DNA from: Candidatus Woesebacteria bacterium
GTDB taxonomy: Bacteria; Patescibacteriota; Microgenomatia; UBA1400; UBA12108
Direction: 5' to 3'
Assembly: GCA_018060845.1 (NCBI GenBank)
Contig: JAGOVG010000002.1
Span: 23,581 to 87,580, forward strand
Length of the DNA stretch: 64,000 nucleotides
Part shown: piece by piece, positions 6,185 to 23,975 of the stretch
Position numbering within the stretch: the first letter of the stretch is position 1
How the letters are laid out: each line of letters begins with the position of its first letter
Made by a program: the position numbers and the translations under genes
The notes under the pieces: generated by a model
Seen by the model: the letters and a program-made list of their open reading frames with translations, nothing else
Database searches by the model: none
Told to the model about the DNA's origin: nothing

Positions 6185-7096
6185 ATGAAGAAACAATTGA
6201 GTAAGTCCATCACTGTCGCCATTCCCTCTTGGAATAGTGCCAAACAACTAAAGAAAAATTTGCCTTCGGTTATCAACGCAGCCAAAAGGGTAAATGCCGA
6301 GATAATCATTGTCGATGATGCAAGCTCCGATGACTCAGTCGCTATAATCAAAGGAGACTGGGGTTATCCAATCAAGCTTGTACAAAATTCGACCAACCAG
6401 GGATACGGCGAGACCATTAATCGTGCGGTTGCTCTCGCCCAGTCAGAGCTTGTGGTGATCTTAAATACCGACGTCTCGCTAAGCGATGACTGTATCGAAA
6501 AATCACTTCCCTACTTTGTAGATCCATCGGTCTTTGCCTTAGGTTTAAACTCAGGCGAGGGGTATATGCGAGTCAAATGGGATCGCGGACTCTTTCATCA
6601 TTTTAAAGGGGTAACTGGGGTAGAAGATCCTGGCGTTACTCCAAGTAGTCTCTGGGCTTCAGGAGGTCAGAGTGTTGTCAGACGGTCTTATTGGCTAGAG
6701 CTCGGGGGAATGTGTCCACTCTACAAGCCATTTTACTGGGAAGATACAGACCTCGGCTACGCAGCCTGGAAGAGGGGATACACAATCCTCTGGGGTCGGG
6801 ATTGTCACTGTGTTCATGATCACGAATCTAGCGTAATCGCAGGGAGCTTTGGTAAAAAAGATGTGATGGATGTGGCTCAGCGTAATCAGTTCCTCTTTAT
6901 CTGGAAGAATATTAGTGACGTAGGTCTCTTGCTAACTCATCTACTCTATTTACCAATCTATCTGATTCGCTATCCGAGGACCGTCATATCTGCTCTACGC
7001 TATCTACCTACTGCACTTAAATATCGCAAACTTCAGTCACAGTACTGGACACGGCTTGATGAGGATATACTATCAATATGGCGAGACTCACAATGA
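6185..7096 (+). CDS. GT2 family glycosyltransferase
   Basis: VAIPSWNSAKQL, IIVDDASSDDS, YWEDTDLGYAAWKRG. Confidence 0.7.
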   Translation: MKKQLSKSITVAIPSWNSAKQLKKNLPSVINAAKRVNAEIIIVDDASSDDSVAIIKGDWGYPIKLVQNSTNQGYGETINRAVALAQSELVVILNTDVSLSDDCIEKSLPYFVDPSVFALGLNSGEGYMRVKWDRGLFHHFKGVTGVEDPGVTPSSLWASGGQSVVRRSYWLELGGMCPLYKPFYWEDTDLGYAAWKRGYTILWGRDCHCVHDHESSVIAGSFGKKDVMDVAQRNQFLFIWKNISDVGLLLTHLLYLPIYLIRYPRTVISALRYLPTALKYRKLQSQYWTRLDEDILSIWRDSQ

Positions 7097-8730
7097 TCAT
7101 TAGTTTTATCAAGAAACACTTCTTAATCCTGACCCTTGCTCTGGCACTACTCTTGCGTGTAGTCAACCTATCAACTAATCCTCCTGAGCTAAACTGGGAC
7201 GAGATCAGCATGGGCTACACTGCCTACTCACTACTAGAGACTGGTCGAGACGAATGGGGTGAGCCTTGGCCCATTCTCTTCCGCTCGTACGGCGAATGGA
7301 AATCACCTGTCTATATCTACCTCCTCATTCCGTTTATCAAAATTTTTGGCCTTACCGAGTGGGGCGTCAGGTTGCCGGCCGCTCTCTTTGGAGTACTCAC
7401 AGTTTATCTTACATATGTTCTAGCTATCAGGCTCTATTCGCGTCGGGTAGGCCTACTCGCAGCATTATTTCTTGCTGTCTCACCATGGCACCTCATGCTC
7501 TCTCGTCCTGCGTTTGAGGCAGGGGTCGCGCTCGCTCTCATCCTCGCCGGCCTGCTATTTTTCTTAAAAAGCATCGAAAAAAACCCTTTAACCTTTAACC
7601 TTTACGCTTTAATCTCAGCGACAGCGTTTGGTCTCTCACTCCACACCTACCATAGTGCCAAAATCGTGGTACCTCTCCTTATCCTCTACATAGGTTGGGT
7701 ATACAGAGCTCGCTTGAGTCTCAAATCACTCATTGCCCCAATCCTAGTTCTTTCTATTTTTGCATATCCAATAGCAAGCGACGTAGTAACCGGCAAGACT
7801 CAGGCACGCTACAATCAGGTAGGCATCACAACCGATGCCGAGCTGACCGAGCGCTTTTTCCGCTATAGAAACACCGCTCCATTTGGTGAGCTAGGCAACA
7901 AAATAGTTTTTAATAAATATACTTTTATCCTCTCTAAGGGGTTCTCTAACTGGACATCTTACCTCTCCCCACATTTTCTCCTGGGTTCTAGTAGTATCAG
8001 AGCGCAGCATAGTATCCCATTCCGCGGCGTACTATATTTTGTTGAGTTTGGGCTCGCAGTCTATGGATTATTTTTACTCAAAAAGTCCTCCTCGCCACTG
8101 CGATACCTCCCAATCGTGCTCATCCTGGTCGGTTTTATCCCACCAGCACTAACCAAAGATATTTATCATGTGCTCCGTAGCATCTTGACCCTGCCTTGGT
8201 GGCAAGTACTCGCGGCCTTAGGACTCAGCGAGCTATTATCCAATAAAAAGTATCAAAAACTTTCTACTTTTACTTTGCTACTTTTAGCTTGCGAAGTAGT
8301 AATCTTTGTCTTTATCTACTTCGCCTGGTACCCCAATGCCTTTGCCAGGGACTGGCAGTATGGACACAAAGCTATCGCCGCATGGGTTCAGGCTAACGAG
8401 AGTAAGTATAAGCAGGTCTATATGACCAAAGCATATGGAGAACCACAGCTCTTCCTCGCTTTTTACAACAAATGGGATCCTAACTGGTATCAAGAAGAGA
8501 ACAAAAAGTTAATCGAATACGAATCCCGTGGTTACCCGTGGCTAGATCAGCTACCAGAGTATAGTCTCGGCAAATACACTTTTAGAGATATCAACTGGCC
8601 CGTCGATAACGGGAAGAACGAAATGGTCTTTATTGGCAAAGGTGACGACTTTTGGCTCGATACCCCCCACCCACTAAGTATTAACTTCCCCGATGGGACT
8701 GCTGCATTTAGAGTTTCTGAGGGCAAATAG
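7078..8730 (+). CDS. Polytopic membrane glycosyltransferase, GT-C fold (PMT/ArnT-like)
   Basis: 550 aa and multi-TM. Loop-1 motif LNWDEISMGYTAYSL. Overlaps the upstream gene by 19 nt. Confidence 0.65.
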   Translation: MARLTMIISFIKKHFLILTLALALLLRVVNLSTNPPELNWDEISMGYTAYSLLETGRDEWGEPWPILFRSYGEWKSPVYIYLLIPFIKIFGLTEWGVRLPAALFGVLTVYLTYVLAIRLYSRRVGLLAALFLAVSPWHLMLSRPAFEAGVALALILAGLLFFLKSIEKNPLTFNLYALISATAFGLSLHTYHSAKIVVPLLILYIGWVYRARLSLKSLIAPILVLSIFAYPIASDVVTGKTQARYNQVGITTDAELTERFFRYRNTAPFGELGNKIVFNKYTFILSKGFSNWTSYLSPHFLLGSSSIRAQHSIPFRGVLYFVEFGLAVYGLFLLKKSSSPLRYLPIVLILVGFIPPALTKDIYHVLRSILTLPWWQVLAALGLSELLSNKKYQKLSTFTLLLLACEVVIFVFIYFAWYPNAFARDWQYGHKAIAAWVQANESKYKQVYMTKAYGEPQLFLAFYNKWDPNWYQEENKKLIEYESRGYPWLDQLPEYSLGKYTFRDINWPVDNGKNEMVFIGKGDDFWLDTPHPLSINFPDGTAAFRVSEGK

Positions 8731-8731
8731 C

Positions 8732-10222
8732 ATGAACTATTTCAGGCTATTCCTTGTAATACTTGCTCTAGGTATCTTCGCTATAACTCTCCCATACTAT
8801 CGTAGTCATATTTTTGCAGTACATTTCGTAGATGAGGATGACAATATCGTGATCGGCAATTACCTTCGCGAAGGTAAAAAGCTCTACACGGATATTTTCT
8901 CTCAGCATCAACCAAGTATGTTTGTGTTGTCTGCTGCTCTGCAGGATAGAGTCTTCGTAAATAATGTTCAGATGGTCGTTCAGCGTCACCGCGAACTGAT
9001 GATCGTTTGGAGTTTATTATGGGTAATCTTCTTGGTAGCTCGATTTGGTTTTCCACTACTACTAACCACAAGTGTAATCGAAATGTCGAAGATAGCCTTA
9101 TTAGGCAACCTCTTCTTAGCAGAAAGCATAGTGATCTACCCACTCATCTATGTATTAGCCCATTATTTTTTTGCTCCCTCAATCATCAAGACTAGTGAAA
9201 AAATAATCTTATCAATAGTGTTCTGGTTTTTATGGTATAGCTTAACCCCGCTCTGGCCATTATTAATCCTTATATTCTTGATCTTTGGCTATAAAAATCG
9301 TAGTGATATTTCGTTACTCAAAATTTACATCACAACCGCGGCTATATTTACTTTGTTGCTCTTAATAATAACCAATTTTCGCGACTATTTTATTAGTGCT
9401 CTATATATTAACTACAAATATTACATTCCGCTAACAACCCCATTCGGATTCGCAGAATCGATCTACAAATCACTTTTTGCGCCCATCCTGGCTATATTCT
9501 CGACCCACACAGGGGAACTACTCATGCTAATTCGTATACTCTCGGTAGCTTTGATAATAAACATTGCTTACCTCATAAAATCAAAAAAATATATGCAAGT
9601 GGTGATAACTGTAATTTTATTATGGCTTACTTCACTTAGGTATATCGACCCAGCAGGTATGCTATATGGCGTGTTTCATATGCTGCCATGGTTTGCAGTC
9701 TTGACGATACTTTCATTTATAAATGACGCCACCCCAAAACTCGTTAACATCATTATGATGATCATGGTTATACTAGCAGCGTGCGGGGTCGCGCGAACAA
9801 ATCTATTTGACAGTCGTATTCCAGAAAATGACTATTATATTAACTTTTCACCTAAGTCAGATATCAGGGAGGCGGTCAAGATTTTGTCCGTTTCTTCACC
9901 TCAGACAATCTGGGTCGAACCAGTAATGTATTACCCTCATTGGCGAACCAAAGCACGTCCTTACACCAAAATGGTCAACTATTACGGTTGGATGGATCAA
10001 ACCGAGCCAATGAAGAGTGATCTTGATCACAATCTAGAGATAAACTTACCTACAATTGTCTACGCAGAAACTAAGCTAGGAATAGGTACTTATTTAGAAA
10101 AATATATTCCGATTACTAGAGAGGGTAGGCCAAGCGGGCTTTATCTGCGAGCCGATCAAGTTGATGGGTTAAGCAAAGAGACTCGCGCGCACCTGCTATA
10201 TTATAGATTTGAAATTAACTAA
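8732..10222 (+). CDS. Polytopic membrane protein (GT-C candidate)
   Basis: About 497 aa and very hydrophobic. VHFVDEDDNIV acidic loop near the N-terminus. First ATG at 8732, just after the upstream TAG. Confidence 0.45.
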   Translation: MNYFRLFLVILALGIFAITLPYYRSHIFAVHFVDEDDNIVIGNYLREGKKLYTDIFSQHQPSMFVLSAALQDRVFVNNVQMVVQRHRELMIVWSLLWVIFLVARFGFPLLLTTSVIEMSKIALLGNLFLAESIVIYPLIYVLAHYFFAPSIIKTSEKIILSIVFWFLWYSLTPLWPLLILIFLIFGYKNRSDISLLKIYITTAAIFTLLLLIITNFRDYFISALYINYKYYIPLTTPFGFAESIYKSLFAPILAIFSTHTGELLMLIRILSVALIINIAYLIKSKKYMQVVITVILLWLTSLRYIDPAGMLYGVFHMLPWFAVLTILSFINDATPKLVNIIMMIMVILAACGVARTNLFDSRIPENDYYINFSPKSDIREAVKILSVSSPQTIWVEPVMYYPHWRTKARPYTKMVNYYGWMDQTEPMKSDLDHNLEINLPTIVYAETKLGIGTYLEKYIPITREGRPSGLYLRADQVDGLSKETRAHLLYYRFEIN

Positions 10223-10236
10223 GCTATACTAAATAT

Positions 10237-11046
10237 ATGAACAATACTATTAATGGGCTAAGCGTCGCCTTAGCTGTCTACAACGAAGAATCTAGTTTGG
10301 CTGAGTGCTTAGATAGTATCAAAGACTTGGCGCATGAAATAATAATAGTCGACGGTAACTCGAGCGACAATACAGTCCAAATCGCTGAAAGTTACGGCGC
10401 CAAGGTCATCCATGAGTCCAATCGCCAAAACTTTCACATTAACAAGCAGTTAGCAATTGACGCCTGTACTGGTGACTGGGTGCTACAGCTAGACGCCGAT
10501 GAACGTGTCAGCTCTATGCTAGCTAATGAAATTAAGCAGGTTATTAGGGACCCAGGTGCCAAAGATGCTTATTATCTAAAGCGGCGCAACTACTTTCTCG
10601 GTCGTTTCATGAATAAAGGAGGAATGTATCCTGATCCAGTCATCCGCTTATTCAAAAAGGGGAAGGCCAAGCTACCTCAAGCTAGCGTACACGAGTTAAT
10701 GGCGGTCGATGGTACTCTAGCCTGGCTTCACAACGACTTGATCCATATCGCGGACCCAACATTTACTCGTTATCTACTCCGTAGTAATAGGTACACCACC
10801 CTAACGTCTCTCGACTACGCGAGAGATAATATTGGTACGAGCACTGTCACTATCCTCAACTATATGCTCCTCAAACCATTTGTCCGTTTTGTAACCATTT
10901 ACTTCCGACACAAAGGTTTCCAGGATGGTTTTCCCGGCTTTGTCTTTGCACTATATTCAGGCCTACATATCGCGAGTTCGTATGTTAAATACTGGGAAAA
11001 AAAGACAACCAACCAATCAACCTCTATGAAACATGATTGGAATTAG
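10237..11046 (+). CDS. GT2 glycosyltransferase, WaaE/KdtX-like
   Basis: LSVALAVYNEESSL, IIIVDGNSSDNT, LQLDADE, YYLKRRNYFLGRFMNKGGMYPDPVIRLFKKG. Confidence 0.75.
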   Translation: MNNTINGLSVALAVYNEESSLAECLDSIKDLAHEIIIVDGNSSDNTVQIAESYGAKVIHESNRQNFHINKQLAIDACTGDWVLQLDADERVSSMLANEIKQVIRDPGAKDAYYLKRRNYFLGRFMNKGGMYPDPVIRLFKKGKAKLPQASVHELMAVDGTLAWLHNDLIHIADPTFTRYLLRSNRYTTLTSLDYARDNIGTSTVTILNYMLLKPFVRFVTIYFRHKGFQDGFPGFVFALYSGLHIASSYVKYWEKKTTNQSTSMKHDWN

Positions 11047-12697
11047 CATGAAAAGACTGCTGCAAAAATATTTTCCTATCCTACTTATTTTAATATCAGG
11101 TCTGTTTTTGACATCGAGCCTGCTTAAGTCAGGTTGGTACCTCTCTCACGATGGTATTTTTCACATCTACCGAACCGAAGAAGCACTCTCCATGCTCAAG
11201 CTTGGACACTTTCCGCTGCGTTGGGCAGGCAACTTTGATCAAGGATTTGGCATACCACTCTTTAGTTTTGTTTATCCACTCCCATACTATATTAGCGCCA
11301 CATTATCAGTAATCTTTGGGACCATGTGGTCACTAAAGATGCTGACTATACTCGCTTACCTCCTAGGCGGCACAGGGATGTATTATCTGCTCTCCGCTTA
11401 TGGCCGGAGTTTTGGTATCTTTGGCGCCCTAATCTTCCTATTAACCCCTTACCAGTTTCTAAATATCTTTGTCCGTGGCACAATCGGAGAGACTCTCGCC
11501 ATTGGTCTCATGCCCTGGGTTTTGTATACCTACCAGCATCTCAAAAAGTCTGGTAATACGCTCGCATGGTACCATCCCATCCCGCTCGCGCTCGTCCTCT
11601 TATCTCACAACTTCCTTGGTATTTTATTCTCAGCTTTCTTGTTGGGTTACATGTTGACTGACAGGTCTTCGATCAAGCGCTCGATTGCAAGTCTCCTATT
11701 ATCACTTAGTCTTAGTGCATTCTTTATCCTGCCAATGATCATTCAAAAAAATCTGCTTTACTCTTTTGAATACAAAGATTTGACTTTCCGTTTTGACCAA
11801 CACTTTGTTACGCTAAAACAGCTCTTATATAGCAAATGGGACTATTGGTATTCGATGCCCGGCGATAACGATGGGATGTCATTCCAGCTAGGGATCGCAC
11901 AGCTCGGGATCGCAGCCGTATCCATACTAGTCATCCTCTGGCGCAGTCGTAGTTTATCTAATATATATCTAGTGATCGCGTATATTGGCACGGTATTTCT
12001 GATGCACAGCAAGAGTTTCTTTATCTGGGACAGCTTACCACTTTTGCAGTCAGTCCAGTTCCCTTGGCGCTTCCTCTTTATGCCACTGATTCTAACCCCG
12101 ATCCTCAGTGTTTCACTACTTAAGCTAATCAAATCAAAGCAACTTCGCTACATTTTAATGTTAATTTTTATATCTGTGGCGTTTGTGAATATCCGCAACT
12201 ATCGCAACCCCCAACAATTCATGGACAACACCACTTACACAGACCTATATCGTTTGTACTACAACAAAACGAGCACTACTTTTAGAACCGAGATACTACC
12301 CAAATGGAGCGTGCCACACGAGAGGTACAAGACAGATGAAGTATTGATTAATTCTGGCAACATGACAATAGATAAGCTAAAGTATGACCCATTATCAATT
12401 ATCATGACTATCAACAACAAACCTGATAGTAGCGAGGGCAGGGTTACAATTCTACGCAACTATTACCCCGGTTGGACTGTGACCATGGATAATTCAAAGA
12501 AAATAAAGATCGAGGCAACTGTCGATGGTATGATAATGCTCAAACCAGAGCTAGGTATTCATGAATATGAGATAGTAATGAAGAGTACAGTCGTTGAGAT
12601 GATTAGCAACGCTCTATCAGGTCTCACTTTAATAACATTAGGATATTTATGGTACAAAAACAAAAAAGCACTGCATTCAAAGGCAAAGTCGAAATAA
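11033..12697 (+). CDS. Large polytopic membrane protein (YfhO/GT-C-like candidate)
   Basis: 554 aa with many TM helices. YLSHDGIFHIYRTEEA loop. Contains an internal QLGIAQLGIAA mini-repeat. Alternative start ATG 11048, just after the upstream stop. Confidence 0.45.
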   Translation: MIGISMKRLLQKYFPILLILISGLFLTSSLLKSGWYLSHDGIFHIYRTEEALSMLKLGHFPLRWAGNFDQGFGIPLFSFVYPLPYYISATLSVIFGTMWSLKMLTILAYLLGGTGMYYLLSAYGRSFGIFGALIFLLTPYQFLNIFVRGTIGETLAIGLMPWVLYTYQHLKKSGNTLAWYHPIPLALVLLSHNFLGILFSAFLLGYMLTDRSSIKRSIASLLLSLSLSAFFILPMIIQKNLLYSFEYKDLTFRFDQHFVTLKQLLYSKWDYWYSMPGDNDGMSFQLGIAQLGIAAVSILVILWRSRSLSNIYLVIAYIGTVFLMHSKSFFIWDSLPLLQSVQFPWRFLFMPLILTPILSVSLLKLIKSKQLRYILMLIFISVAFVNIRNYRNPQQFMDNTTYTDLYRLYYNKTSTTFRTEILPKWSVPHERYKTDEVLINSGNMTIDKLKYDPLSIIMTINNKPDSSEGRVTILRNYYPGWTVTMDNSKKIKIEATVDGMIMLKPELGIHEYEIVMKSTVVEMISNALSGLTLITLGYLWYKNKKALHSKAKSK

Positions 12698-13722
12698 TAG
12701 GCAAGAGTCCCTACGCAGGATCCGGCCCTCGTGGTATCGATGTCTATACGAGGCAGCTTAGTGAGCATCTATCTCGGGATCTCCCTCACGAGTCGCTGAT
12801 CGTGAGTCGTGAAGTAACTAGCAACCTCCCAGTTAACTTAGTACATTACACATTTTTTGACCCATTCTTTTTGACACTTTGGGGTAAGATCCCGAGGAGT
12901 GCTCCGTTTATAGTAACTGTCCACGATCTGATACCTCTACGTTTCCCTGAGCACTTCCCAAGTGGTGTACGCGGCAAAATTAAGTATCTGCTGCAAAAGA
13001 GCGCGCTCAAGCAGGCATCGGGGATCATCACTGACTCTGTTGCCTCAAAAGCCGATATAGTCAAATACGTAGGCTACCCTGAGTCTAGGGTTCATGTCGT
13101 ACCGCTCGCTGCCGGGAGTATTAGCGCTACAGTTGCACTTGGTCGGACTATTGCCAAAGAGTATGATCTGCCAGAACGTTACATATTGTACGTTGGTGAT
13201 ATCAACTGGAATAAGAACATTGTCGGGTTGATCAAAGCTTTTAGTAGTATCGTAGACGACAAAACTCAGCTAGTATTAGTAGGCAAAGCCTTTGCGTCAA
13301 AGTCAAATACTCCAGAATCTATCGCAATCAACGAGGCGATTTCGGCAAGTCCCAAAAAATCTTTGATAAAAATAGTAGGTTTCGTCCCGACTCATCACTT
13401 AAGCGCCATTTATCGCGGTGCCACACTCTATGTCCAGCCGTCTTGGTATGAGGGATTTGGTTTCCCAGTCATCGAAGCGCTGATTCAGGGTGCCCCGGTC
13501 CTTAGTAGTAATCAGGGTAGTCTCCCCGAAGTAGGAGGGGAGAATGTCCATTACTTTGATCCGAATGTCAGTAGCGATCTGTCAGACAAATTGAGCGTAC
13601 TCATCAAGAATGGCAATCTTCGTACCAAATACCGCGACGCGGGTATAAACTGGGCCAAGAAATTTACCTGGAAAAACGTCGCCCACGAGACTATGCTCAT
13701 CTATGAAAAATACTCACGCTAA
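12649..13722 (+). CDS. GT4 family glycosyltransferase
   Basis: EGFGFPVIEALIQGAPVLSSNQGSLPEVGG (GT4 E-x7-E region). ATG 12649 lies 49 nt inside the upstream gene. No ATG exists after the upstream stop, so the start is uncertain. Confidence 0.7.
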   Translation: MVQKQKSTAFKGKVEIIGKSPYAGSGPRGIDVYTRQLSEHLSRDLPHESLIVSREVTSNLPVNLVHYTFFDPFFLTLWGKIPRSAPFIVTVHDLIPLRFPEHFPSGVRGKIKYLLQKSALKQASGIITDSVASKADIVKYVGYPESRVHVVPLAAGSISATVALGRTIAKEYDLPERYILYVGDINWNKNIVGLIKAFSSIVDDKTQLVLVGKAFASKSNTPESIAINEAISASPKKSLIKIVGFVPTHHLSAIYRGATLYVQPSWYEGFGFPVIEALIQGAPVLSSNQGSLPEVGGENVHYFDPNVSSDLSDKLSVLIKNGNLRTKYRDAGINWAKKFTWKNVAHETMLIYEKYSR

Positions 13723-15475
13723 ACTTTCATACTTTCTGCTGTTTATATTCGCTTTGATACCAAGAATGTATGCGCTCGGGACTATTCCAACCGCGCTATC
13801 TCATGACGAAGTTGATGTAATCATACAAGCACATAGCATTAGACTAACCGGTAGAGACTTGTCAGGGAAGTGGTCTCCGTTTACTTTACTCCCCAATGAT
13901 GGTTTGATGGCTGAGCTATCTCCGATTATTAATCTCCCTGCGCTTACCCTCCTACCAAACACACTATTTACAGCACATTTCACGACTGCTCTGCTCGGGA
14001 GTCTATACCCAATACTAATCGTAATATTGCTAACGTCCTGGGGTCTGAACAAAAAAGCTTCCTGGATAAGCGGAGTCTTGCTCGCACTCTCACCTTGGCA
14101 TTTACTCTTTAGTCGGACTACTCTCGAGCAGCCTGCGAGTCTATTTTTCTATACTTTATCATGGATTATTCTCGCAAAAATATTTTCGACAAAAAATAAT
14201 CCAAAAGTGCTGCTACTTTCTACTTTCACCTTTATAACTTTTTACTCGTTAGGCTTCTATACTTACCATGGTTACAAGTTTTCACTCCCACTATTAACAA
14301 TCCTTATTGCTTTTTACAATTACATCAGGTCACTCCGTCATAATAAATTAATAATTCTTACAATTGTTCTGTCTGTTATCGGAGGTCTATATCTTCGCAC
14401 ATATGTAAACATGCGTAGCTACCTAGGGAGACAAAGTGAAATTGTATTTCTTGACCAGTCGCGTTTCTCAAACATCGTAAACCTTGATCGAAGTATAAGC
14501 GTCATGCCAGCAAAAATAAATGAATATTTAGTTAATAAACCACTTGCCATGGCACACCTAACTATTAATAAATACTTATCACTGCTATCGCCTCAACAAA
14601 TGTTTATGAATGGGGAGAAAAATGGCGTGTTCTCAACCGGTCGTACCGGCTACTTATACTTCTTTTTACTCCCATTTGTTTTAATCGGTGCTGTTTGTAT
14701 GGTTATGTCTGGCAAAAAAGAAGAAATATTCATCAGTATACTAATATTTCTTTCTCCAATAGCAACAATTATTCATAAAAACGATTCATTTGCATTTCGG
14801 TCTGGGATCTTTATTGCTTTACTCACCATCACTAGCGCTATTGGAATAGAGTATTTAAATCGGCGCTACCCAAAACTTAGGATTGACGCTGTCGCATTAG
14901 TACTAGCGATATTTAGTTTTACCCATTTTAGCTACACCTATTTTGGATTTTACCCTGTTGAGAGCTCACGTGCCTACTTTTTCGCAGACAGTACTCTCGC
15001 TACCTACTTATCTCACAGAGGTCAAGAAAGAATCTTAGTAATCGACCCACAACCAAGATACATCATGAGTTACCTAGTCTTAACAAATAAGAATGTTACT
15101 CTCGATGCAATTAATCCACTGATCGGGAGGTATAGCGTGAATGAAGAGCAAAACAGCTACGAGGTCGATAATCTAACGATCAGAAGAGATTGTCCATCTG
15201 ATAGTTCTATTGTTTACGATACAGTGATCGCAGATTTTACCCTATTAGACGGTCTGGGGAGTTGTATACCGCTCCACAAACTAAAATCTACTAAGATCCT
15301 CACTCGTAATATTGTAGATCCATTAGATGGAGGGGTGATTAAGAAAATTTATGGAGACCGCATTTGTGGCGACACAGCTGTCGCTAGATACCTCAGTCTA
15401 ACTGGGATTAACACTTTTGCAATTAACAAGATGTCTAAGGTACAATTCTGTTCTAGCTGGATTATTGAAAATTAA
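13703..15475 (+). CDS. Polytopic membrane glycosyltransferase, GT-C fold (PMT/ArnT-like)
   Basis: 590 aa. LSHDEVDVIIQAHSIR loop-1 motif. Multi-TM. Confidence 0.6.
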   Translation: MKNTHAKLSYFLLFIFALIPRMYALGTIPTALSHDEVDVIIQAHSIRLTGRDLSGKWSPFTLLPNDGLMAELSPIINLPALTLLPNTLFTAHFTTALLGSLYPILIVILLTSWGLNKKASWISGVLLALSPWHLLFSRTTLEQPASLFFYTLSWIILAKIFSTKNNPKVLLLSTFTFITFYSLGFYTYHGYKFSLPLLTILIAFYNYIRSLRHNKLIILTIVLSVIGGLYLRTYVNMRSYLGRQSEIVFLDQSRFSNIVNLDRSISVMPAKINEYLVNKPLAMAHLTINKYLSLLSPQQMFMNGEKNGVFSTGRTGYLYFFLLPFVLIGAVCMVMSGKKEEIFISILIFLSPIATIIHKNDSFAFRSGIFIALLTITSAIGIEYLNRRYPKLRIDAVALVLAIFSFTHFSYTYFGFYPVESSRAYFFADSTLATYLSHRGQERILVIDPQPRYIMSYLVLTNKNVTLDAINPLIGRYSVNEEQNSYEVDNLTIRRDCPSDSSIVYDTVIADFTLLDGLGSCIPLHKLKSTKILTRNIVDPLDGGVIKKIYGDRICGDTAVARYLSLTGINTFAINKMSKVQFCSSWIIEN

Positions 15476-15482
15476 TACTTCT

Positions 15483-17291
15483 ATGAATTTCATCAAAAAA
15501 CTAATTACGCCAGTATTCTTACTTTTGATCGCACTCATAATCATCTTTCCTCGTTTTTATCAGCTAGGTGACACTCCACACGGCCTACATATCGATGAGG
15601 TTAGTTTTGCTGCTGACGCCAAGTCACTAGCCGAAACTGGCAAAGATACATGGGGAGTGACTATGCCTAGGGTTTTCAAAGCTTTTGGCGAGTATAAGGC
15701 GCCCGGCCTCACCTATAGTATGGCATTTTGGGCCAAAGTAACTGGCGACATGAACAATTATGTTGCCCGTCTCCCATCAGCGTTCGCCGGTCTAACCATG
15801 ATTGTAATGCTAGTTTTAACACTCAAAACACTTGTTCCCTCTATTAGTCCGATTCTCTTAGCTACTGTTGCTTTCATGCTCGCATATAGTCCTTGGCATT
15901 TTGATATGTCTCGTATTTTTTATGAAGCTTTTAGTGCCACGGCCTGGCTCTCTATCTCTATTTACTTTGCTACTAGACTATTACTACCATCTAAAAAAAG
16001 CTCCAAATATGACTGGCTCCTTATGCTCTCGACTGCCTCTATAGCTGGTTACTATTACGCTTCACTTCGCTACGTCATTATTATTTATGCATTAATCGTA
16101 TCTTATCTGCTAGAGACTAGGTTTAAAGCTATTCTTAAGAGAAGTGTGATAGCACTATTAGTACTCACATTGGTCGGTGTCGGCTGGGTAGGCGACCTAT
16201 TCTCCGATGTTGGCTTAAATAGACTCTACTACTATCAACAAAAAGCCGATTTTGGATCTGCCTTAGAGATCGATGAGAAACGTCAGTTCTGCTATCTAGC
16301 ACTGGATCGTGATTCAGAAGCAACGAGAGGATGCTACTTACTTTGGAATAAGCCTGTCTCGCGGATCACTGGGATCATAGCTACCACCTTGACCTATCTT
16401 GGTACTGATTTTCTGTTTATAAAAGGCGTGAGCGAGTACGGTTTTGATAGCCAGTACGGAGCGTATTTACCTCCACTTGTGCTTATTTACTTGATAGGGC
16501 TGTATTATGCTCTAACGAGCTTTGTACGCTTCATGACATCTCGATTAAAGAAGGAAGATAATTTGCAAATTAATCGAGAAGATAGGGTATTTGTTCTATA
16601 TCTAGGTCTTACACTGCTTTCGCTAGTTCCTGCAGCTGTTGCAATGAATCTAAATATGCGAATGGCAATGGTTAGTTTATATATAATCTCTATTCTAATT
16701 GGATATGGCATATATCAGTTGAACGAATACCTTGTGCGTACAGTCAAACCAACTATTCAAATACTATCTTATTGCTTGCTCGGTGGAGCATTTCTATTTT
16801 ACGCATTTCAATCAACGATCCATTATTGGTTCGTATTTACCAAAAGCAACGACCTTCAATGGACATCAGATGCAGGATCAATATTTCATTATGTTAAGAG
16901 TGTCTCTAATAGTTATGACCGTATTGTCGACACCGAACTACATGGTCCGTTGGCCCCATATTTTTACGGAGATATTACAACAGCTGAGGTTCATCATGGG
17001 GAGTACAGCAAGCCAGATGCAATAGGTTTTACATACCTAATAATGGCAGGTAAATATGAACTTAACCATATCAATATCAAAGATCTTGCATGCGAAGTAG
17101 TTAGTAAAAATGATAAGCGGAGAACTCTCTTAATTACAAATCCATACCCAGAACTCGTTTCTATGCGAAAATATGAATCACGTTCTTGGAATGGAGCACT
17201 CCTGCTTCACGAAGTCTACGATCTTGCAGACGTTATCGCATATATGCAGCGATCCGAGCCAAACTTTATGAGTCGCTGCGGGCCAAAATAA
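15483..17291 (+). CDS. Polytopic membrane glycosyltransferase, GT-C fold (PMT/ArnT-like)
   Basis: About 602 aa from ATG 15483 (MNFIKKLITPVF...). LHIDEVSFAADAKSL motif. Paralog of its neighbours. Confidence 0.6.
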   Translation: MNFIKKLITPVFLLLIALIIIFPRFYQLGDTPHGLHIDEVSFAADAKSLAETGKDTWGVTMPRVFKAFGEYKAPGLTYSMAFWAKVTGDMNNYVARLPSAFAGLTMIVMLVLTLKTLVPSISPILLATVAFMLAYSPWHFDMSRIFYEAFSATAWLSISIYFATRLLLPSKKSSKYDWLLMLSTASIAGYYYASLRYVIIIYALIVSYLLETRFKAILKRSVIALLVLTLVGVGWVGDLFSDVGLNRLYYYQQKADFGSALEIDEKRQFCYLALDRDSEATRGCYLLWNKPVSRITGIIATTLTYLGTDFLFIKGVSEYGFDSQYGAYLPPLVLIYLIGLYYALTSFVRFMTSRLKKEDNLQINREDRVFVLYLGLTLLSLVPAAVAMNLNMRMAMVSLYIISILIGYGIYQLNEYLVRTVKPTIQILSYCLLGGAFLFYAFQSTIHYWFVFTKSNDLQWTSDAGSIFHYVKSVSNSYDRIVDTELHGPLAPYFYGDITTAEVHHGEYSKPDAIGFTYLIMAGKYELNHINIKDLACEVVSKNDKRRTLLITNPYPELVSMRKYESRSWNGALLLHEVYDLADVIAYMQRSEPNFMSRCGPK

Positions 17292-17293
17292 TT

Positions 17294-18919
17294 ATGAAAA
17301 AATATACTCTTGCTCTCATTATTGGTATTGCCGCTCTCTTGCGTTTACCATTCCTCAACTCTCACATGGACACTCTTTATGGCGACGAAGTGGCACTTGG
17401 CTACAACGCCTTTGCGATCCGTGAGACTCTCCGAGATGAGTTTGGGCGTTTTATGCCGCTCCAGTTTGAGTCTTGGGGGGATCAAAAAAATCCAGTGTAT
17501 ATTTATGCAACAGCACTGACTCAGCTAGTAACTGGTCCCACAATGGCGAGTGTTCGCATCCCCTCTGCTATTGTGGGAGTACTCGCAGTCTACCTAACTT
17601 ACCGGCTAGTTATACTCCTTAAGCTGGGTAGTAGCGTGGCATTATTCTCAGCACTCCTCCTCGCTGTGAGTCCGTGGCACATCCATATTAGCCGGGGTGG
17701 GTACGAGGCTAATGTGGCACTCACCTTAGGCCTCGGTAGTGTAGTCCTACTATTCTCCCGACGCTTTGCACTATCTGCACTCCTCCTCGCACTCTCCGCC
17801 TATACCTACTACACCACTAAGATGTTTGCGCCAATCCTCTTACTCTTTGCCTGGGTCTACATGATTGACTGGTCCAAGTACAAAAATAGTATCAAGCCAT
17901 TCGTCAAATACTGGCTACTGTCCTTATTTTTTGTGATCCCAATTATTTATCTCGCGCTCTTTAAAGGTGGGCAAATCCGTTTTCAGAGTATTAACATATT
18001 CGTTGATAAAACTGTAACACCTAGGGTTGAGCGTGCCCGCAACTTCTTTGATAACCCAGAGAGTCTGGGGGCAAAACTCAGCGAGAACAGGTTCACCTAT
18101 CATCTGAGTGACTTTGTCATGTACTACCTAGAGAACTTTTCTGGGCAATTCCTCTTTGTAGGCGGGGATAGTAATGTGCGTTACGGTCTCGCCGGCCATG
18201 GCATGCTCTATTTGCTAGATGCACCACTTATCTTAATGGGTCTGATACTTCTGTATCATAAGAATCGGCGTGTTTGGTACTTCCTCGTAGCCTGGCTGCT
18301 GCTCGCCCCACTCCCAACAGCCCTTGTTGGTCGAGCGTATGGCTTGCGTAGTCTCGCCATGCTTCCAATCCCCCAGATCCTGGCAGCCTACGCCCTCACG
18401 TCTTGGGTAACAAACATAAAAAAATCCAAATTTACATTGTTGCTTTTTTCATTGTTCGTTATTCTCTATACCTTCTCCGTAGTCAATTGGCTCCATCGTT
18501 ACGTCTATCAATATCCCGCCTACGGGCGATACTGGTACGATGCCCCTATGCAAGATGCAGTAACTTATGCCAAAGAACGAGAGGATAAATATGATCAGAT
18601 CATTATCAGTCAGAGCTACGGCGAGGTCTCGATGTATTATGCATTCCTAAACAAGGTTCATCCCGACGTCTATAGGGCAGCCAAAGCCAACAAAGTCACA
18701 GTCGACGGCGTACCAATGGTCAAGCTTGGCAAATACTACTTTGGCGACATCAGGCCACGTGGACCGATTGAGAAGATGGATATCCCATACAATACTCTGA
18801 TCCTAGTCCAGCCATATTTTGAATACGGCGAAGGCACAATTATAGCTCGTGATGACGGCCGCCCTATTTATCGAGTCTTTGAGTTTCCAACAGTCCACAT
18901 GAAAGCTAAAGACCAATGA
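17294..18919 (+). CDS. Polytopic membrane glycosyltransferase, GT-C fold (PMT/ArnT-like)
   Basis: ATG 17294 (MKKYTLALIIG...). GDEVALGYNAFAIRE motif. Multi-TM. Confidence 0.6.
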   Translation: MKKYTLALIIGIAALLRLPFLNSHMDTLYGDEVALGYNAFAIRETLRDEFGRFMPLQFESWGDQKNPVYIYATALTQLVTGPTMASVRIPSAIVGVLAVYLTYRLVILLKLGSSVALFSALLLAVSPWHIHISRGGYEANVALTLGLGSVVLLFSRRFALSALLLALSAYTYYTTKMFAPILLLFAWVYMIDWSKYKNSIKPFVKYWLLSLFFVIPIIYLALFKGGQIRFQSINIFVDKTVTPRVERARNFFDNPESLGAKLSENRFTYHLSDFVMYYLENFSGQFLFVGGDSNVRYGLAGHGMLYLLDAPLILMGLILLYHKNRRVWYFLVAWLLLAPLPTALVGRAYGLRSLAMLPIPQILAAYALTSWVTNIKKSKFTLLLFSLFVILYTFSVVNWLHRYVYQYPAYGRYWYDAPMQDAVTYAKEREDKYDQIIISQSYGEVSMYYAFLNKVHPDVYRAAKANKVTVDGVPMVKLGKYYFGDIRPRGPIEKMDIPYNTLILVQPYFEYGEGTIIARDDGRPIYRVFEFPTVHMKAKDQ

Positions 18920-19572
18920 AGCTATACGTTGTTGTGCCAGCATATAACGAATCAAGATTTATTGGCGCCTTCTTAGATAAATTATCCAAGAAAACTAAAA
19001 ACATTATTGTAGTAGACGACGGAAGTCGCGATCGCACAACTGACATCGTCAAATCTAAGGGGATCAAAGTGCTTACGCATATCACCAACCTGGGCAAGGG
19101 TGCTGCTTTAAAAACAGGTTGCGAGTACGCGTTTAATAGACTCGGCGCTGATGGAGTTATTATTATGGATGGAGATGATCAACACGACGTCTCAGATATC
19201 TCACAGTTTGCCAATGCACTAAGTAGAGGCGCACACATAGTTCTAGGAGTTAGAGCAATGGATAGCAGGATGCCGCTGACCCGGTTACTTGGCAACAGAT
19301 TTACTTCTGTTCTGATAAACGTTCTTTTCGGTCGCTATATCTCTGATGTCCCGAGCGGCTTCAAGGCTATGACAAAGAGTGCATACAAAAAGCTCTTATG
19401 GCACAGTAGTGGGTACGAGGTCGAGACCGAAATCGCAGTTAGGCTCGCAAAAAGTAAGATTAATTATGTAGAGATACCTATCAATACTATCTATCATGGC
19501 AAAGAGTACGGATTTAACTTGATCGACGCTGCCCGTATTATAATAAAGATACCTTACTGGATATGGAGCTAA
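18916..19572 (+). CDS. GT2 polyprenol-phosphate sugar synthase-like (Dpm1/GtrB-like) glycosyltransferase
   Basis: 218 aa. VVPAYNESRFI, VVDDGSRDRT, DGDDQHD. A short soluble GT2 typical of dolichyl/undecaprenyl-phosphate mannose/glucose synthases. ATGA overlap. Confidence 0.6.
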   Translation: MKLYVVVPAYNESRFIGAFLDKLSKKTKNIIVVDDGSRDRTTDIVKSKGIKVLTHITNLGKGAALKTGCEYAFNRLGADGVIIMDGDDQHDVSDISQFANALSRGAHIVLGVRAMDSRMPLTRLLGNRFTSVLINVLFGRYISDVPSGFKAMTKSAYKKLLWHSSGYEVETEIAVRLAKSKINYVEIPINTIYHGKEYGFNLIDAARIIIKIPYWIWS

Positions 19573-19898
19573 ACACTATGATTGGTATACAAATGTTCTC
19601 GATCGTATTTATCTTCATCATGTTATATGTCGTACGTATCCACTACAAAAAACAAGAATTGCCACGCGTAGAAGCTATGTTTTGGAGCATAGTCCTCCTA
19701 TCTCTAGCTACGATCGTAATAGTCCCTGGTAGTGCTGATGCAGTTAGAAACCTTTTTCAAGTATCGCGATTACTAGATGTAATCATGATAATAGCCTTTA
19801 TGGGAACATTTATATTCTTAATCGAGAATCGAATCCAGATAAGCAAACTCCGCTCCAAACTAGAGCTGTTGACTAGAGAGAAAGCCATGAAAGAGTAG
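19563..19898 (+). CDS. Small two-TM membrane protein with C-terminal coiled-coil tail (DUF2304-like), partner of the preceding GT2
   Basis: 111 aa, two hydrophobic helices, then charged KLRSKLELLTREKAMKE. This family commonly follows polyprenol-P GT2 genes. Alternative start ATG 19578, preceded by GGAG. Confidence 0.45.
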   Translation: MELNTMIGIQMFSIVFIFIMLYVVRIHYKKQELPRVEAMFWSIVLLSLATIVIVPGSADAVRNLFQVSRLLDVIMIIAFMGTFIFLIENRIQISKLRSKLELLTREKAMKE

Positions 19899-19899
19899 T

Positions 19900-20676
19900 A
19901 TGAAGTTGCCAAAAATTTCTATCGTTACTCCTAGCTACAATCAGGCTAAGTATATAAGAGCTACTATCGATAGTGTCCTTACCCAAGCCTACCCTAATCT
20001 CGAATATATCGTAATGGATGGAGGTAGTACGGACGGCACAGTTGAAATACTCAAAAGCTATGGCACTAAAATACGATGGGAGAGTAAAAAAGATAATGGT
20101 CAGACTCATGCAATTAACAAAGGGTTACGCCGAGCTACGGGACAGGTACTCGCATATCTCAACTCTGACGACATATATCTCCCTGGCACGCTTCAGACAG
20201 TAGGGGAGTATTACGCTCGGACCAAAGCCGATTGGATTACAGGGGATTGTATAGTAATAGATGAACACGGTAATCCTAGTCGTAGTAACTGGCTGATCTC
20301 AGGATATAAGCGTTTGCTTATGAAATTATATAGTCGTACTACACTTATGATCGCCGATTCGATGTTGCCGCAACCATCGACTTTCTGGTCCCGCAATGCA
20401 GCGAGTGTGGTAGGTGAGTTTAATGAAAAATATCACTACGTCATGGACTACGACTATTGGCTCAGATTATCTAAGCATTATCGTCCTCATGAACTCAAGG
20501 TTGCACTCTCTGGCTTTCGCGCCCAACCAGACAGTAAAAGCGAAACTAGTCGTCCAAAGTTAATGGCAGAAGGAGAATTGGCATTAGTGGCAAATGGAGC
20601 CAAACCCTGGCATCTCACTCTCCATCGAGCACATTCAGCAGTTGTTCGCCTAATCTACAACTTAATCAAGCAGTGA
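19900..20676 (+). CDS. GT2 family glycosyltransferase
   Basis: ISIVTPSYNQAKYIRATIDSVLTQAYPNLEYIVMDGGSTDGT. Confidence 0.75.
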   Translation: MKLPKISIVTPSYNQAKYIRATIDSVLTQAYPNLEYIVMDGGSTDGTVEILKSYGTKIRWESKKDNGQTHAINKGLRRATGQVLAYLNSDDIYLPGTLQTVGEYYARTKADWITGDCIVIDEHGNPSRSNWLISGYKRLLMKLYSRTTLMIADSMLPQPSTFWSRNAASVVGEFNEKYHYVMDYDYWLRLSKHYRPHELKVALSGFRAQPDSKSETSRPKLMAEGELALVANGAKPWHLTLHRAHSAVVRLIYNLIKQ

Positions 20677-20699: not shown

Positions 20700-22079
20700 A
20701 TGAAATTAAATAAATTAACAATAATCGGAAGTGTCATTCTATGTATAGCTTTTGCATTATCAGGGACATTTGTTTCAGTACACCGATTCTATCAATTTGA
20801 TTCCTTTTACTATGATTTTGGTATTTTTGATCAAGCAATTTGGCGAGTCTCACAATTTAGTGCGCCAATAATAGATCATTATGTTGTTGGTGGATCATGG
20901 ATATTTGGCGATCATTTTAGCCCAGCTCTAATGTTGCTCGCCCCCATCTACTGGGCTACACACGCTCAAGAGGCCATATTCTTAGTTCAAGCTGCATTTG
21001 CAGCCTTAGCAGGGCTTGTCTTGTACAAGACAGCATATGCACTAACTAGTAATAATATTATCTCTCTCACAGTCCAAGTGGTTTTTTATCTATTTACTGG
21101 CCTACAAAACGCAGTGATTACAGATATCCATGAGTTAACATTCGCTACTCTCCCGATCTCAGTGGTTCTATATTCCCTCGTCACGCGTAATAAGCATATG
21201 TATATATTCTCATCACTATTTCTACTCCTCTTCAAAGAATCAACATTCCTCGTTATTTGTGGTATTCATTTCTATACTTGGTTAAAAGTAAAAGAATGGC
21301 GAAATACGGCTATTTTGCTCTCTATACTTAGTATTATTTATGCTTATTGCGTAATAACCTTTGTAATCCCAGCTTTTTCAAACTACTATCAATACAACTT
21401 TTTGTCTGGACACACCATTCGGAGTGCGATCAGCTCGCTCTATGACAACCCCATCAAGATAAAAACGGTGGTCGATAGTCTCACTAGCTTCTCATTTGCC
21501 GCGATATTTACACCAGCACTCTGGCCAACATACTTAGCTCATTACTGGGCACGATTTTTATCCACCGCTGGTTCGCGCTGGGAAATAGGACTTCACTACA
21601 ACGCTGAAATTGCACCTATATATGCTTTCTCATTGATGCTCATCTTACATAAAATAACTATTCACAAGAAGATGGCAACTCAGTTAGTGGTTGCTTTAGT
21701 TGTTGTAGCCATTGCACTCTATCAAAACTATGTTCGGCTGAAGATGCCCTTCTTAATGGCGACCAATCCCGCACTCTATCTTGCATCAGATCGAACAGTC
21801 GAAATACGAAAATATCTTAAACAAATGCCATCAGATCAAATAATTATGGCACCAAATCATCTAGCTGCCCATCTCACACATAAAAAAGTACTGCTCGCTC
21901 GCGATAAATATAAGGATTACGATCCAGAATACATAATATTTGATACTAATCCAGATCAAAGTGGTAATAACTGGTACGGTTTGAAAGATAAGGAGCAGTA
22001 TATTAAAAATGTGTCTGCAGATTTTGATTATATGCTGATACAATCAATCTCTAGTTACCAAATTTATAAGAAGAACTGA
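20700..22079 (+). CDS. Polytopic membrane protein, DUF2079-like (putative GT-C glycosyltransferase)
   Basis: 459 aa. [17 protein letters not shown] matches the conserved HF.P segment of the DUF2079 family. Confidence 0.45.
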
Positions 22080-22080
22080 T

Positions 22081-23025
22081 ATGTCTAATGACTCTTGGGC
22101 AAACAAGCGAGTAGTTGTAACCGGCGGTGCAGGGTTCCTGGGATCGAATGTAGTTAAACAACTAGAAGATTTAAGCGTTAAGGATATTGTAATTCCTCGC
22201 TCAAATACTAACGATCTAAGATCTCAAGAGGCTTGTGCCAAAGTGGTAGAAGGAGCAGATATAGTCATTCATTTAGCTGCCAACGTCGGTGGTATTGGAT
22301 ATAACCGCGACTTCCCTGGGACGCTCTTTTACGATAACCTCCTAATGGGTGTACATATGATGGAAGAGAGTAGGAAGGCAGGGGTTAAAAAATTTGTCGC
22401 TATCGGAACAATTTGCGCCTACCCAAAATTCGCCCCAATCCCTTTCAAAGAACAAGATCTTTGGGATGGTTACCCAGAGGAGACAAATGCTCCCTATGGT
22501 CTAGCCAAAAAGATGATGTTAGTCCAGAGTACTGCGTACAGGGATCAGTACAACTTTAATAGCATCTTTCTCCTACCAGTAAACTTATACGGTCCAGGTG
22601 ATAACTTTGAGCCGGGCAGTAGTCACGTGATACCTGCGCTTATAAAAAAATTTGTCGAAGCAAAACAAAATGGATCCAATAGCGTCGAAGTATGGGGAGA
22701 TGGCGCTGCTACTCGGGAATTTTGTTATGTTGATGATGCTGCAAAGGGCATTATTCTCGCAACTGAAAAGTATAATAAGAGTGAGCCTGTAAATATCGGT
22801 GCAGGCTTCGAAATATCGATACACGATCTCGCAAACAAAATTTCAGATTTGATAGGTTACACTGGTCAAATAATCTGGGACAAATCCAAACCGAATGGTC
22901 AGCCTAGACGAATGCTAGATGTGTCACGCGCAGCATCCGAATTTGGTTTTACTGCAAACACTACCTTTGACGTAGGATTATCAAAAACAGTGAGTTGGTA
23001 TATCAATAACGTCTCAAAAATATGA
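22081..23025 (+). CDS. NAD(P)-dependent epimerase/reductase, GDP-L-fucose synthase (Fcl/WcaG)-like
   Basis: [15 protein letters not shown] Rossmann motif. [34 protein letters not shown] parallels the Fcl catalytic Y-x3-K region. Confidence 0.65.
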
Positions 23026-23975
23026 ACTGGTATAGGCATTACATCGGGCTATATCTCAGCGTTTTCTCAGTGTTGATGGCTGCCATAGAAACCTACAAAT
23101 ATCCTGGATTTATATTCAAGCATTTCAATTTTTTGCCGATGATATTTTATGTTATTACTGGTATAGCAATAATTGCTATCAAGCTATACCCTCCGCCAAC
23201 TCCAGAAAAATCTCTCCTAGCCATAACATTTAGATTACTGGCAATTTATGCCATCATTTTGACAGGCGTGTTCTATATTATCGAAACAATAACTTATCCG
23301 AACTTCATTTTTACTTACCTCCATGTCCACCTAGATGGTTTGCAGATCCTAACGGGTATGCTTTTTGTATACTTTGCCTTATCAAACCTCATGCATAGAC
23401 ACTATGTCGCTATTCTAAACAGCACCTTTCTTCTGGCCATATCATCACTCTTAATAAACTATGCGATCATCAATACGATAGATGTAACAAAATTAGTGAA
23501 AAAAGAAGTCAAGGCCATGCAGATACCTGCAAAAAATGACGAAGAAAAAAACGAAGCAGGGTGGGGAACAATCTATCTATATGCACAAATGCTAAAACAA
23601 GCTACCCCTGAAGATGCGGTTATCGCAATGCCACCGGCTCAAAATCACTGGCTATACTCTGGCAACATAGTATTGATGCGTTACTTTTTGTACCCACGGA
23701 CTCTCGTTAACGTCAAAGAAACCGCCGACCCTTCAACACTCCTCGAACTACCCGATCAAGAGTATGGTTATGTCGCACTCGTTTGGGGTGAGTCAAATGA
23801 GCGTGATATGTCTCCCTATGGTTGGCCAAAGACTAGTATCAGCGCAGAATATATAGACTACTTTGACCTAAGTAGTAAGACCACTAAACGTGAGGTTAAT
23901 ACAGAATATCTACCCACTGTTTTAAATGAGTCTATATGGGGAGTAATTAAGGTTAAGCAAGAGGAGTCGCAATGA
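23022..23975 (+). CDS. Polytopic membrane protein, unknown function
   Basis: 317 aa, multiple TM helices, C-terminal soluble segment. ATGA overlap. Confidence 0.5.

Follow-up and report, generated by a model that had tools for sequence, protein, structure and literature searches.

A conserved triplet of ancient, putative GT-C glycosyltransferase paralogs beside a candidate polyprenyl-phosphate sugar synthase pair in a Woesebacteria glycosylation locus

Three adjacent genes in a 64,000-nucleotide stretch of a Candidatus Woesebacteria genome (contig JAGOVG010000002.1, positions 23,581 to 87,580; the whole stretch is called the window hereafter) encode membrane proteins resembling GT-C glycosyltransferases, and they raise the question of whether such a triplet is the product of a recent tandem duplication, as an earlier note on this DNA had proposed, or a set of old paralogs with separate tasks, and from which sugar donor they would work. 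We consider it probable that genes A, B and C are anciently diverged GT-C (PMT/ArnT-like) paralogs within a long glycan operon, fed by a GT2 glycosyltransferase and its DUF2304 partner encoded directly downstream, and acting on different acceptors. The three genes are as follows.

13703..15475, + strand: gene A, putative 590-aa GT-C glycosyltransferase with HDEVDV after its first transmembrane (TM) helix and a Cys-containing, predicted extracytoplasmic C-terminal domain
15483..17291, + strand: gene B, putative 602-aa GT-C glycosyltransferase with IDEVSF after TM helix 1
17294..18919, + strand: gene C, putative 541-aa GT-C glycosyltransferase with GDEVAL after TM helix 1

The starts of B and C were chosen from alignment with orthologs: the longest open reading frames (ORFs) run from TTG 15417 to 17291 (624 aa) at B and from TTG 17186 to 18919 (577 aa) at C, and ATG 15483 (MNFIKKL...) and ATG 17294 (MKKYTLAL...) are the starts that fit the orthologs. 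Three adjacent + strand ORFs were thus found as the earlier note described them, but C, with only 541 aa from its ortholog-based start, falls short of the ~590-620 aa given there. An exact-sequence look-up of C from ATG 17294 returned no match, probably because another start was called there; for A the sole exact match was a 7.9-kb Logan contig of run SRR11088367, which is identical to window positions 9865-17749. The genes are tightly packed, with gaps of 7 nt between A and B and 2 nt between B and C, a 4-nt overlap of the C stop with the start of the following GT2 gene, and a 20-nt overlap of the upstream GT4 gene with the start of A. They may well be co-transcribed; a promoter and terminator scan yielded no excess over shuffles and is silent on a single operon either way.

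By hydropathy each protein has 6-8 TM segments, and the structural models of A and B display more helices and a soluble C-terminal region of ~140-165 residues. The D-E-V loop motifs reported earlier are all present, lying directly past the first TM helix (A 34-39, B 37-42, C 30-35), with D and E invariant and V replaced by I, T or A in some orthologs. Nor is DE confined to the triplet: it also occurs in further GT-C-like ORFs of the window (1581-3008, 7078-8730, 8693-10222, 31917-33476 and 42176-43522). Conserved Cys residues (C497, C521, C555 and C583 in A; C270, C284, C537 and C599 in B) lie in the C-terminal domains and a long loop, as would suit an extracytoplasmic position of these parts. 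Among the other ORFs with DE is a fourth member of the paralog family:

7078..8730, + strand: G0, 550 aa, NWDEISM motif; Pfam PMT_2 E 9.1e-14, PMT E 2.3e-10

The kinship of the three proteins goes beyond shared hydrophobicity, the point on which the earlier note had staked its reading. BLASTP aligned A with B at 25% identity over 341 aa (E 9e-9), A with C at 26% over 353 aa (E 2e-10) and B with C at 35% over 144 aa (E 3e-14), and hhalign of the A family (42 sequences) against the B family (53 sequences) gave E 9.8e-45 at a probability of 100%, with 16% identity in the 484 columns aligned. When 22 sequences from the four orthogroups are aligned, 18 columns are invariant (R21, L25, D35, E36, A43, D52, G55, A96, P131, W132, S137, R138, E142, Y188, R243, R263, G329 and Y413 in A numbering), including D35, E36 and the SPWH...SR...E block; D35/E36 open the first loop helix in the models of A and B. 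The 25 columns that are identical across the four orthogroups are concentrated at B residues 24-62, the first external loop, and 133-148 (SPWH..SR..E), the remaining ones being Y192, R247, R267, N289, L329, G339 and Y448 (B numbering). The C-terminal domain (B 451-602) behaves otherwise, with a conservation of 0.6-0.8 inside each orthogroup but 0-2% between orthogroups. Because the catalytic half is common and the C-terminal domains are group-specific, the alignments suggest a shared donor and catalytic machinery combined with paralog-specific acceptor recognition. The acceptor- or linkage-specific diversification put forward in the earlier note fits these data, although the roles would have been divided long ago and kept unchanged since.

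Family models assign these proteins unevenly. C passes the Pfam thresholds of PMT_2 (28.8 bits, cut-off 26.1) and PMT (25.4 bits, cut-off 22.7), A reaches 18.4 bits against PMT, under the gathering score of 22.7, and B has no match in Pfam or NCBIfam; none of A, B and C matched NCBIfam, its ArnT models included. A and B therefore lie outside the current Pfam and NCBIfam models. AlphaFold2 models built on homolog alignments had a predicted local distance difference test (pLDDT) of 88.7 and a predicted template modelling score (pTM) of 0.88 for A, and 92.7 and 0.91 for B. Foldseek against PDB placed STT3, AglB, PglB, ArnT and Pmt4 on top for A (best E 3.5e-7), and ArnT, AglB, STT3, PglB, DPY19, AftA and PMT for B, the same set being found for A. 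By these models A and B are GT-C fold glycosyltransferases, with the conserved acidic residues of the superfamily in the first extracytoplasmic loop, and C is counted among them because of its 33% identity to the PMT_2-positive gene G0 and its own Pfam matches; A and B are tied to C and G0 through profile and pairwise comparison only. The earlier description of all three as GT-C-type paralogs of one architecture is thereby borne out, through the modelled fold for A and B and through the PMT_2 and PMT gathering scores for C. Judged by their sequences, A, B and C stand remote from every solved GT-C enzyme. With A as the query, exhaustive HMMER searching at E<=1e-30 recovered 215 full-length clusters (50% identity), the majority of which have no Pfam match. 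Homologs of A fell into 43 clusters of 96% to 37% identity and those of B into ~69 near-full-length clusters of 86% to 27% identity, the few named B clusters coming from Candidatus Microgenomates and one 'Moraniibacteriota'. A literature search on GT-C, PMT or ArnT in Microgenomates or Patescibacteria found nothing specific.

As to the age of the triplet, the adjacency, common orientation, similar length and single architecture of the genes would speak for a recent local amplification, with copy number and surface glycan varying from strain to strain, a possibility raised in the earlier note. Against this, the paralogs share a global identity of only 15-22% (means of 18% for A-B, 19% for A-C and 20% for B-C; 30% for C-G0), with a nonsynonymous divergence (dN) of ~1. 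The longest DNA repeat between genes of the family measures 47 nt, the shared DNA being limited to chance-level short matches; this repeat and the next longest (31 nt), both at ~70% identity, join C with G0 and not the triplet members with each other. In an all-against-all BLAST, the best paralog of C within the window was the non-adjacent G0, 8.5 kb upstream (33% identity, 511 aa, E 2e-63), and in a neighbour-joining tree, where each of the four orthogroups is monophyletic, the sister group of C is G0 and neither A nor B. The ratio of nonsynonymous to synonymous divergence (dN/dS) of the paralogs, which had been proposed as a check, proved uninformative: in Nei-Gojobori counts the proportion of synonymous differences (pS) was 0.70-0.86 even for the closest orthologs, and since synonymous sites are thus saturated, a paralog dN/dS is meaningless. 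The proportion of nonsynonymous differences between orthologs (pN 0.11-0.27) is far under pS, and each copy is therefore under purifying selection.

Ortholog-bearing contigs of related genomes (labelled with L numbers) were mapped by tblastn. Reciprocal best positional orthologs were 39-68% identical for A, 39-80% for B, 59-83% for C and 52-84% for G0; a wider set of positional orthologs spanned 38-82% for A and 59-87% for C, and the closest species, L010 and L011, had 81-88% identity for A, B, C and G0. The order A-B-C was present in every related genome with enough contig, embedded in the recurring order GT2, G0, (M509), GT2, PTPS_related-like gene, GT4, (X370), A, B, C, GT2 (218 aa), DUF2304, GT2 (258 aa), in which M509 and X370 are membrane genes of variable occurrence. 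This order was kept in eight distinct genomes (L002/L012, L005/L006, L008, L010, L011, L013, L015 and L017), and the four contigs that end early (L003, L014, L016 and L018) agree with it. The triplet showed no copy-number variation among the eight related Microgenomates/Woesebacteria genomes, each having one copy of each gene in fixed order, so the strain-level variation considered earlier was not seen. In the more distant L007 and L009, a B ortholog occurs without neighbouring A or C, so that the triplet characterises a single clade and not Microgenomates at large. The duplications are far older than the split between the related genomes available, and a recent tandem duplication is hardly credible, since the ortholog tree and the synteny both refute it.

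Two side observations concern these relatives. Ortholog identities are discordant within the block, namely 60% for A but 80-82% for B, C and G0 against L002, and 68% for A, 62% for B and 84% for G0 against L003, suggesting recombination or mosaicism, or gene-specific rate shifts. Moreover, the records of L011, L012, L014, L015 and L018 are titled 'uncultured Pseudomonadales bacterium' or 'Gammaproteobacteria' despite loci near-identical to those of Woesebacteria or Microgenomates; because these titles clash with the Woesebacteria (L010) and Microgenomates (L016) titles, they are most likely taxonomic mislabels in public records.

A clue to the donor of A, B and C lies immediately downstream, where two genes overlap in tandem:

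18916..19572, + strand: short GT2, 218 aa without a TM helix; Pfam Glycos_transf_2; candidate polyprenyl-phosphate sugar synthase
19563..19898, + strand: DUF2304 protein, 111 aa with 3 TM helices; Pfam DUF2304, 58.1 bits against a cut-off of 25.5

The best NCBIfam matches of the short GT2 were AglJ (E 5e-31) and PpgS (E 4.4e-30, positions 3-215 of 226), followed by a haloarchaeal dolichol-phosphate (Dol-P) hexose transferase, PgfS and ArnC, and among PDB sequences the Pyrococcus Dol-P-mannose synthase 5mlz matched best (E 2e-10), ahead of an unnamed glycosyltransferase, ArnC and GtrB. All the named matches are makers of polyprenyl-phosphate sugars; the other GT2s of the block match TuaG/EpsE-type enzymes instead. 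In the relatives the short GT2 always lies directly past C, and the pair adjoins C in the eight genomes, with the DUF2304 gene undetected at the L015 locus; the distant B homolog of L009 lies directly past a GT2 fused to a GtrA-like TM domain. DUF2304 proteins are known as partners of such synthases: GacJ binds and stimulates GacI, an undecaprenyl-phosphate N-acetylglucosamine synthase, the Mycobacterium tuberculosis protein Rv3632 stimulates PpgS, and, on the outer side of the membrane, the GT-C enzyme GacL passes the sugar on to the polysaccharide of the wall (Rush et al. 2017, bioRxiv 10.1101/180810). By analogy with these systems, the most likely product of the GT2/DUF2304 pair is a polyprenyl-phosphate monosaccharide, which A, B and C would use after flipping.

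In the mechanism that we propose, the short GT2, assisted by its DUF2304 partner, would take a monosaccharide from its nucleotide-sugar form and attach it to polyprenyl phosphate on the cytoplasmic side, and the lipid-linked sugar would be flipped across the membrane. At the outer face A, B and C would each use it via the invariant Asp-Glu pair of the first external loop, each serving a different acceptor, position or linkage on a cell-surface polymer or protein, with specificity set by the paralog-specific loops and C-terminal domains. Several observations weigh against this scheme. Every NCBIfam match of the short GT2 is under the equivalog cut-off (104.8 versus 370 bits for PpgS), which makes it a resemblance and not equivalog membership, and with at least eight PMT_2-type GT-Cs and several other GT2s in the window, this GT2 is assigned to A, B and C by adjacency alone. 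The conserved block contains no flippase, the only Wzx-type gene of the window lying ~19 kb off (38169-39446). Furthermore, the profile of the four orthogroups found no match among PDB sequences at E<=1, so that an active site equivalent to that of ArnT or PMT is argued from fold and motif position only.

Aside from the recent amplification dismissed above, two other readings concern what the triplet does and on what it acts. That A, B and C, possibly with G0, form one obligate multi-subunit glycosyltransferase like Pmt1-Pmt2 or EmbA-EmbB would account for their fixed order, near-zero spacing and strict co-occurrence over deep divergence, and solved relatives are indeed dimeric by their PDB descriptions (Pmt1-Pmt2, the Pmt4 homodimer and EmbA-EmbB). 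However, all three keep the invariant catalytic-side residues and none looks like a non-catalytic scaffold, and B orthologs without A or C neighbours in the distant L007 and L009 sit poorly with obligate assembly; we regard it as quite improbable.

A possible, though doubtful, reading touches the acceptor only and is compatible with the donor part of our scheme, namely that the three are protein O-glycosyltransferases, like bacterial PMT or streptococcal PgfM/PgtC, that modify Ser/Thr-rich regions of secreted, S-layer or pilin proteins. The sole Pfam signal of the triplet is indeed PMT/PMT_2, a DE motif in loop 1 is a hallmark of PMT (GT39), PgfS is among the matches of the short GT2, and protein glycosylation by a GT2 together with GT-Cs is documented in monoderm bacteria (bioRxiv 10.1101/2024.05.05.592596). 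Conversely, the structural scores of ArnT, ALG12 and AglB equal or exceed those of the PMTs, no candidate acceptor protein was identified, and the 64-kb surroundings resemble polysaccharide assembly, with Wzx, a Wzy_C-type protein, many GT4s and GT2s and sugar-nucleotide enzymes; from these surrounding genes we lean towards a polymer acceptor.

Returning to anciently diverged GT-Cs fed by the GT2/DUF2304 pair, their neighbours within the block are these.

8693-10222: M509, 8 TM segments, FVDEDD after TM helix 1, no Pfam match
10237-11046, + strand: GT2, conserved upstream block member
11033-12697, + strand: PTPS_related-like polytopic membrane protein, 554 aa, conserved upstream block member; its ortholog in L002 carries PF10131
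12649..13722, + strand: cytoplasmic GT4 (Pfam Glycos_transf_1, Glyco_transf_4), directly upstream of A, block member by synteny
19900..20676, + strand: GT2 of TuaG/EpsE type, 258 aa, conserved downstream block member
20700-22079: DUF2079 membrane gene, limited at this position to the window, L010 and L011

Variation in the cluster sits in accessory membrane genes and not in the triplet. M509 is missing from L002, L003, L008, L016 and L017, and X370, a 370-aa polytopic membrane gene without a Pfam match, lies between GT4 and A in seven related genomes (L002 7107-8219, L003 7098-8210, L005 7103-8212, and L015-L018) and is absent from the window, L008, L010, L011, L013 and L014. A fused or degraded X370 in the window was considered and discarded, tblastn finding no remnant; the 20-nt GT4/A overlap of the window mirrors the GT4/X370 overlap of L002. 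At the place of the DUF2079 gene, L002 carries an AbiEii-family toxin gene and a 186-aa partner (15280-16535) between the 258-aa GT2 and the epimerase.

The block belongs to a glycosylation island that is unusually large for a genome of the Candidate Phyla Radiation (CPR), nearly all window ORFs being on the + strand. Among the window proteins, at least eight are GT-Cs of the PMT_2 type (1581-3008, 4834-6180, 7078-8730, 42176-43522, 49423-50841, A, B and C), and other features of the island are listed below.

22081-23025: GDP-L-fucose synthase-like epimerase/reductase (NCBIfam Fcl E 2.6e-85, under cut-off)
23972-25267, 31917-33476 and 33490-34617: polytopic proteins without annotation
27056-28108: UDP-GlcNAc 2-epimerase (Pfam E 2.4e-109)
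28105-30342: unusual 745-aa fusion of an N-terminal GT4 with a C-terminal part weakly matching C5-epimerase, pectate lyase, GH127 and LanC-like (alpha/alpha)-toroid domains
38169-39446: Wzx-type flippase (Polysacc_synt)
47762-49426: Wzy_C-type protein

The sugar-nucleotide genes hint at a product glycan with fucose and N-acetylmannosamine-type sugars. No GtrA family match was obtained among the scanned proteins, and neither tRNA genes within the window nor signs of mobile elements around the triplet were found. It is conceivable, though rather unlikely, that the block as a whole (G0, the PTPS_related-like protein, A, B, C, X370, M509 and DUF2079, fed by the GT2/DUF2304 pair) is an extracytoplasmic line that assembles or branches an unknown Microgenomates wall glycopolymer. 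If so, an ultrasmall CPR bacterium would possess a functional analog of the Aft/Emb machinery for arabinan in mycobacteria, and A and B would be founders of two unannotated GT-C families.

The locus is a fairly ordinary, unannotated cell-surface glycosylation operon that would not surprise a specialist, and no new kind of system is described here; ongoing duplication and strain-level variation are removed as a reading of it. In the CPR/Patescibacteria genomes are tiny and little is understood of the envelope, yet most of this 64-kb stretch consists of glycosylation genes, and most of its PMT-like GT-C enzymes are annotated as hypothetical only. The predicted GT-C identity of A and B, together with their fixed order beside a GacI/GacJ-like donor synthase over deep divergence, offers a testable entry to the surface glycan chemistry of Microgenomates, and annotation is improved for two families missed by Pfam and NCBIfam.

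In comparison with known systems, the locus belongs to the GT-C superfamily and is neither of the ArnT nor of the Emb type. The nearest folds are those of ArnT, ALG12, AglB and PMT. The GT-C fold, modelled for A and B and predicted for C from homology, and the acidic motif in the first external loop are in common with ArnT (GT83) and the protein O-mannosyltransferases (GT39), and the layout of A and B, in which a soluble domain follows the TM bundle at the C-terminal end, is ArnT-like. The likeness to ArnT is structural only, with no NCBIfam ArnT match and no PDB sequence match by profile. A CPR bacterium would not be expected to have lipid A, and the acceptor must therefore differ from that of ArnT. 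Relative to PMT, A and B do not reach the Pfam thresholds, whereas C and G0 pass PMT_2, and a MIR domain is absent. The closest analogue of the triplet as such is embC-embA-embB of mycobacteria (GT53), likewise a tandem GT-C triplet with a TM domain and a C-terminal extracytoplasmic domain. The Emb enzymes use a polyprenyl-phosphate monosaccharide donor and their paralogs are subfunctionalised to different acceptors; they measure ~1,050-1,100 aa, carry carbohydrate-binding modules and are far more alike mutually than A, B and C, which have neither the C-terminal carbohydrate-binding modules nor the ~1,100-aa length of the Emb type.

The Pgf system of Streptococcus mutans (the GT2 PgfS, PgfE, and the GT-Cs PgfM1 and PgfM2) likewise combines one synthase-type GT2 with several GT-Cs in one operon and extracytoplasmic acceptors (bioRxiv 10.1101/2024.05.05.592596). 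However, PgfM1 and PgfM2 belong to the YfhO family of GT-Cs, to which A, B and C have no match in Pfam or NCBIfam, and the pgf locus encodes its acceptor proteins, whereas no acceptor protein is evident at the A/B/C locus. In our comparison, the closest functional analogues would be GacI/GacJ/GacL of Streptococcus pyogenes and PpgS/Rv3632/Rv3779 of M. tuberculosis, in which a short GT2 is likewise followed by a DUF2304 protein and linked to a GT-C. These are three-component side-chain glycosylation systems, made up of a polyprenyl-phosphate-HexNAc synthase, its DUF2304 activator and a GT-C transferase. The likeness of the PMT/ArnT-like A, B and C to GacL and Rv3779 is one of gene arrangement and not of direct protein comparison, and whereas those systems have one GT-C per synthase pair, three divergent GT-Cs, or four with G0, accompany the pair here.

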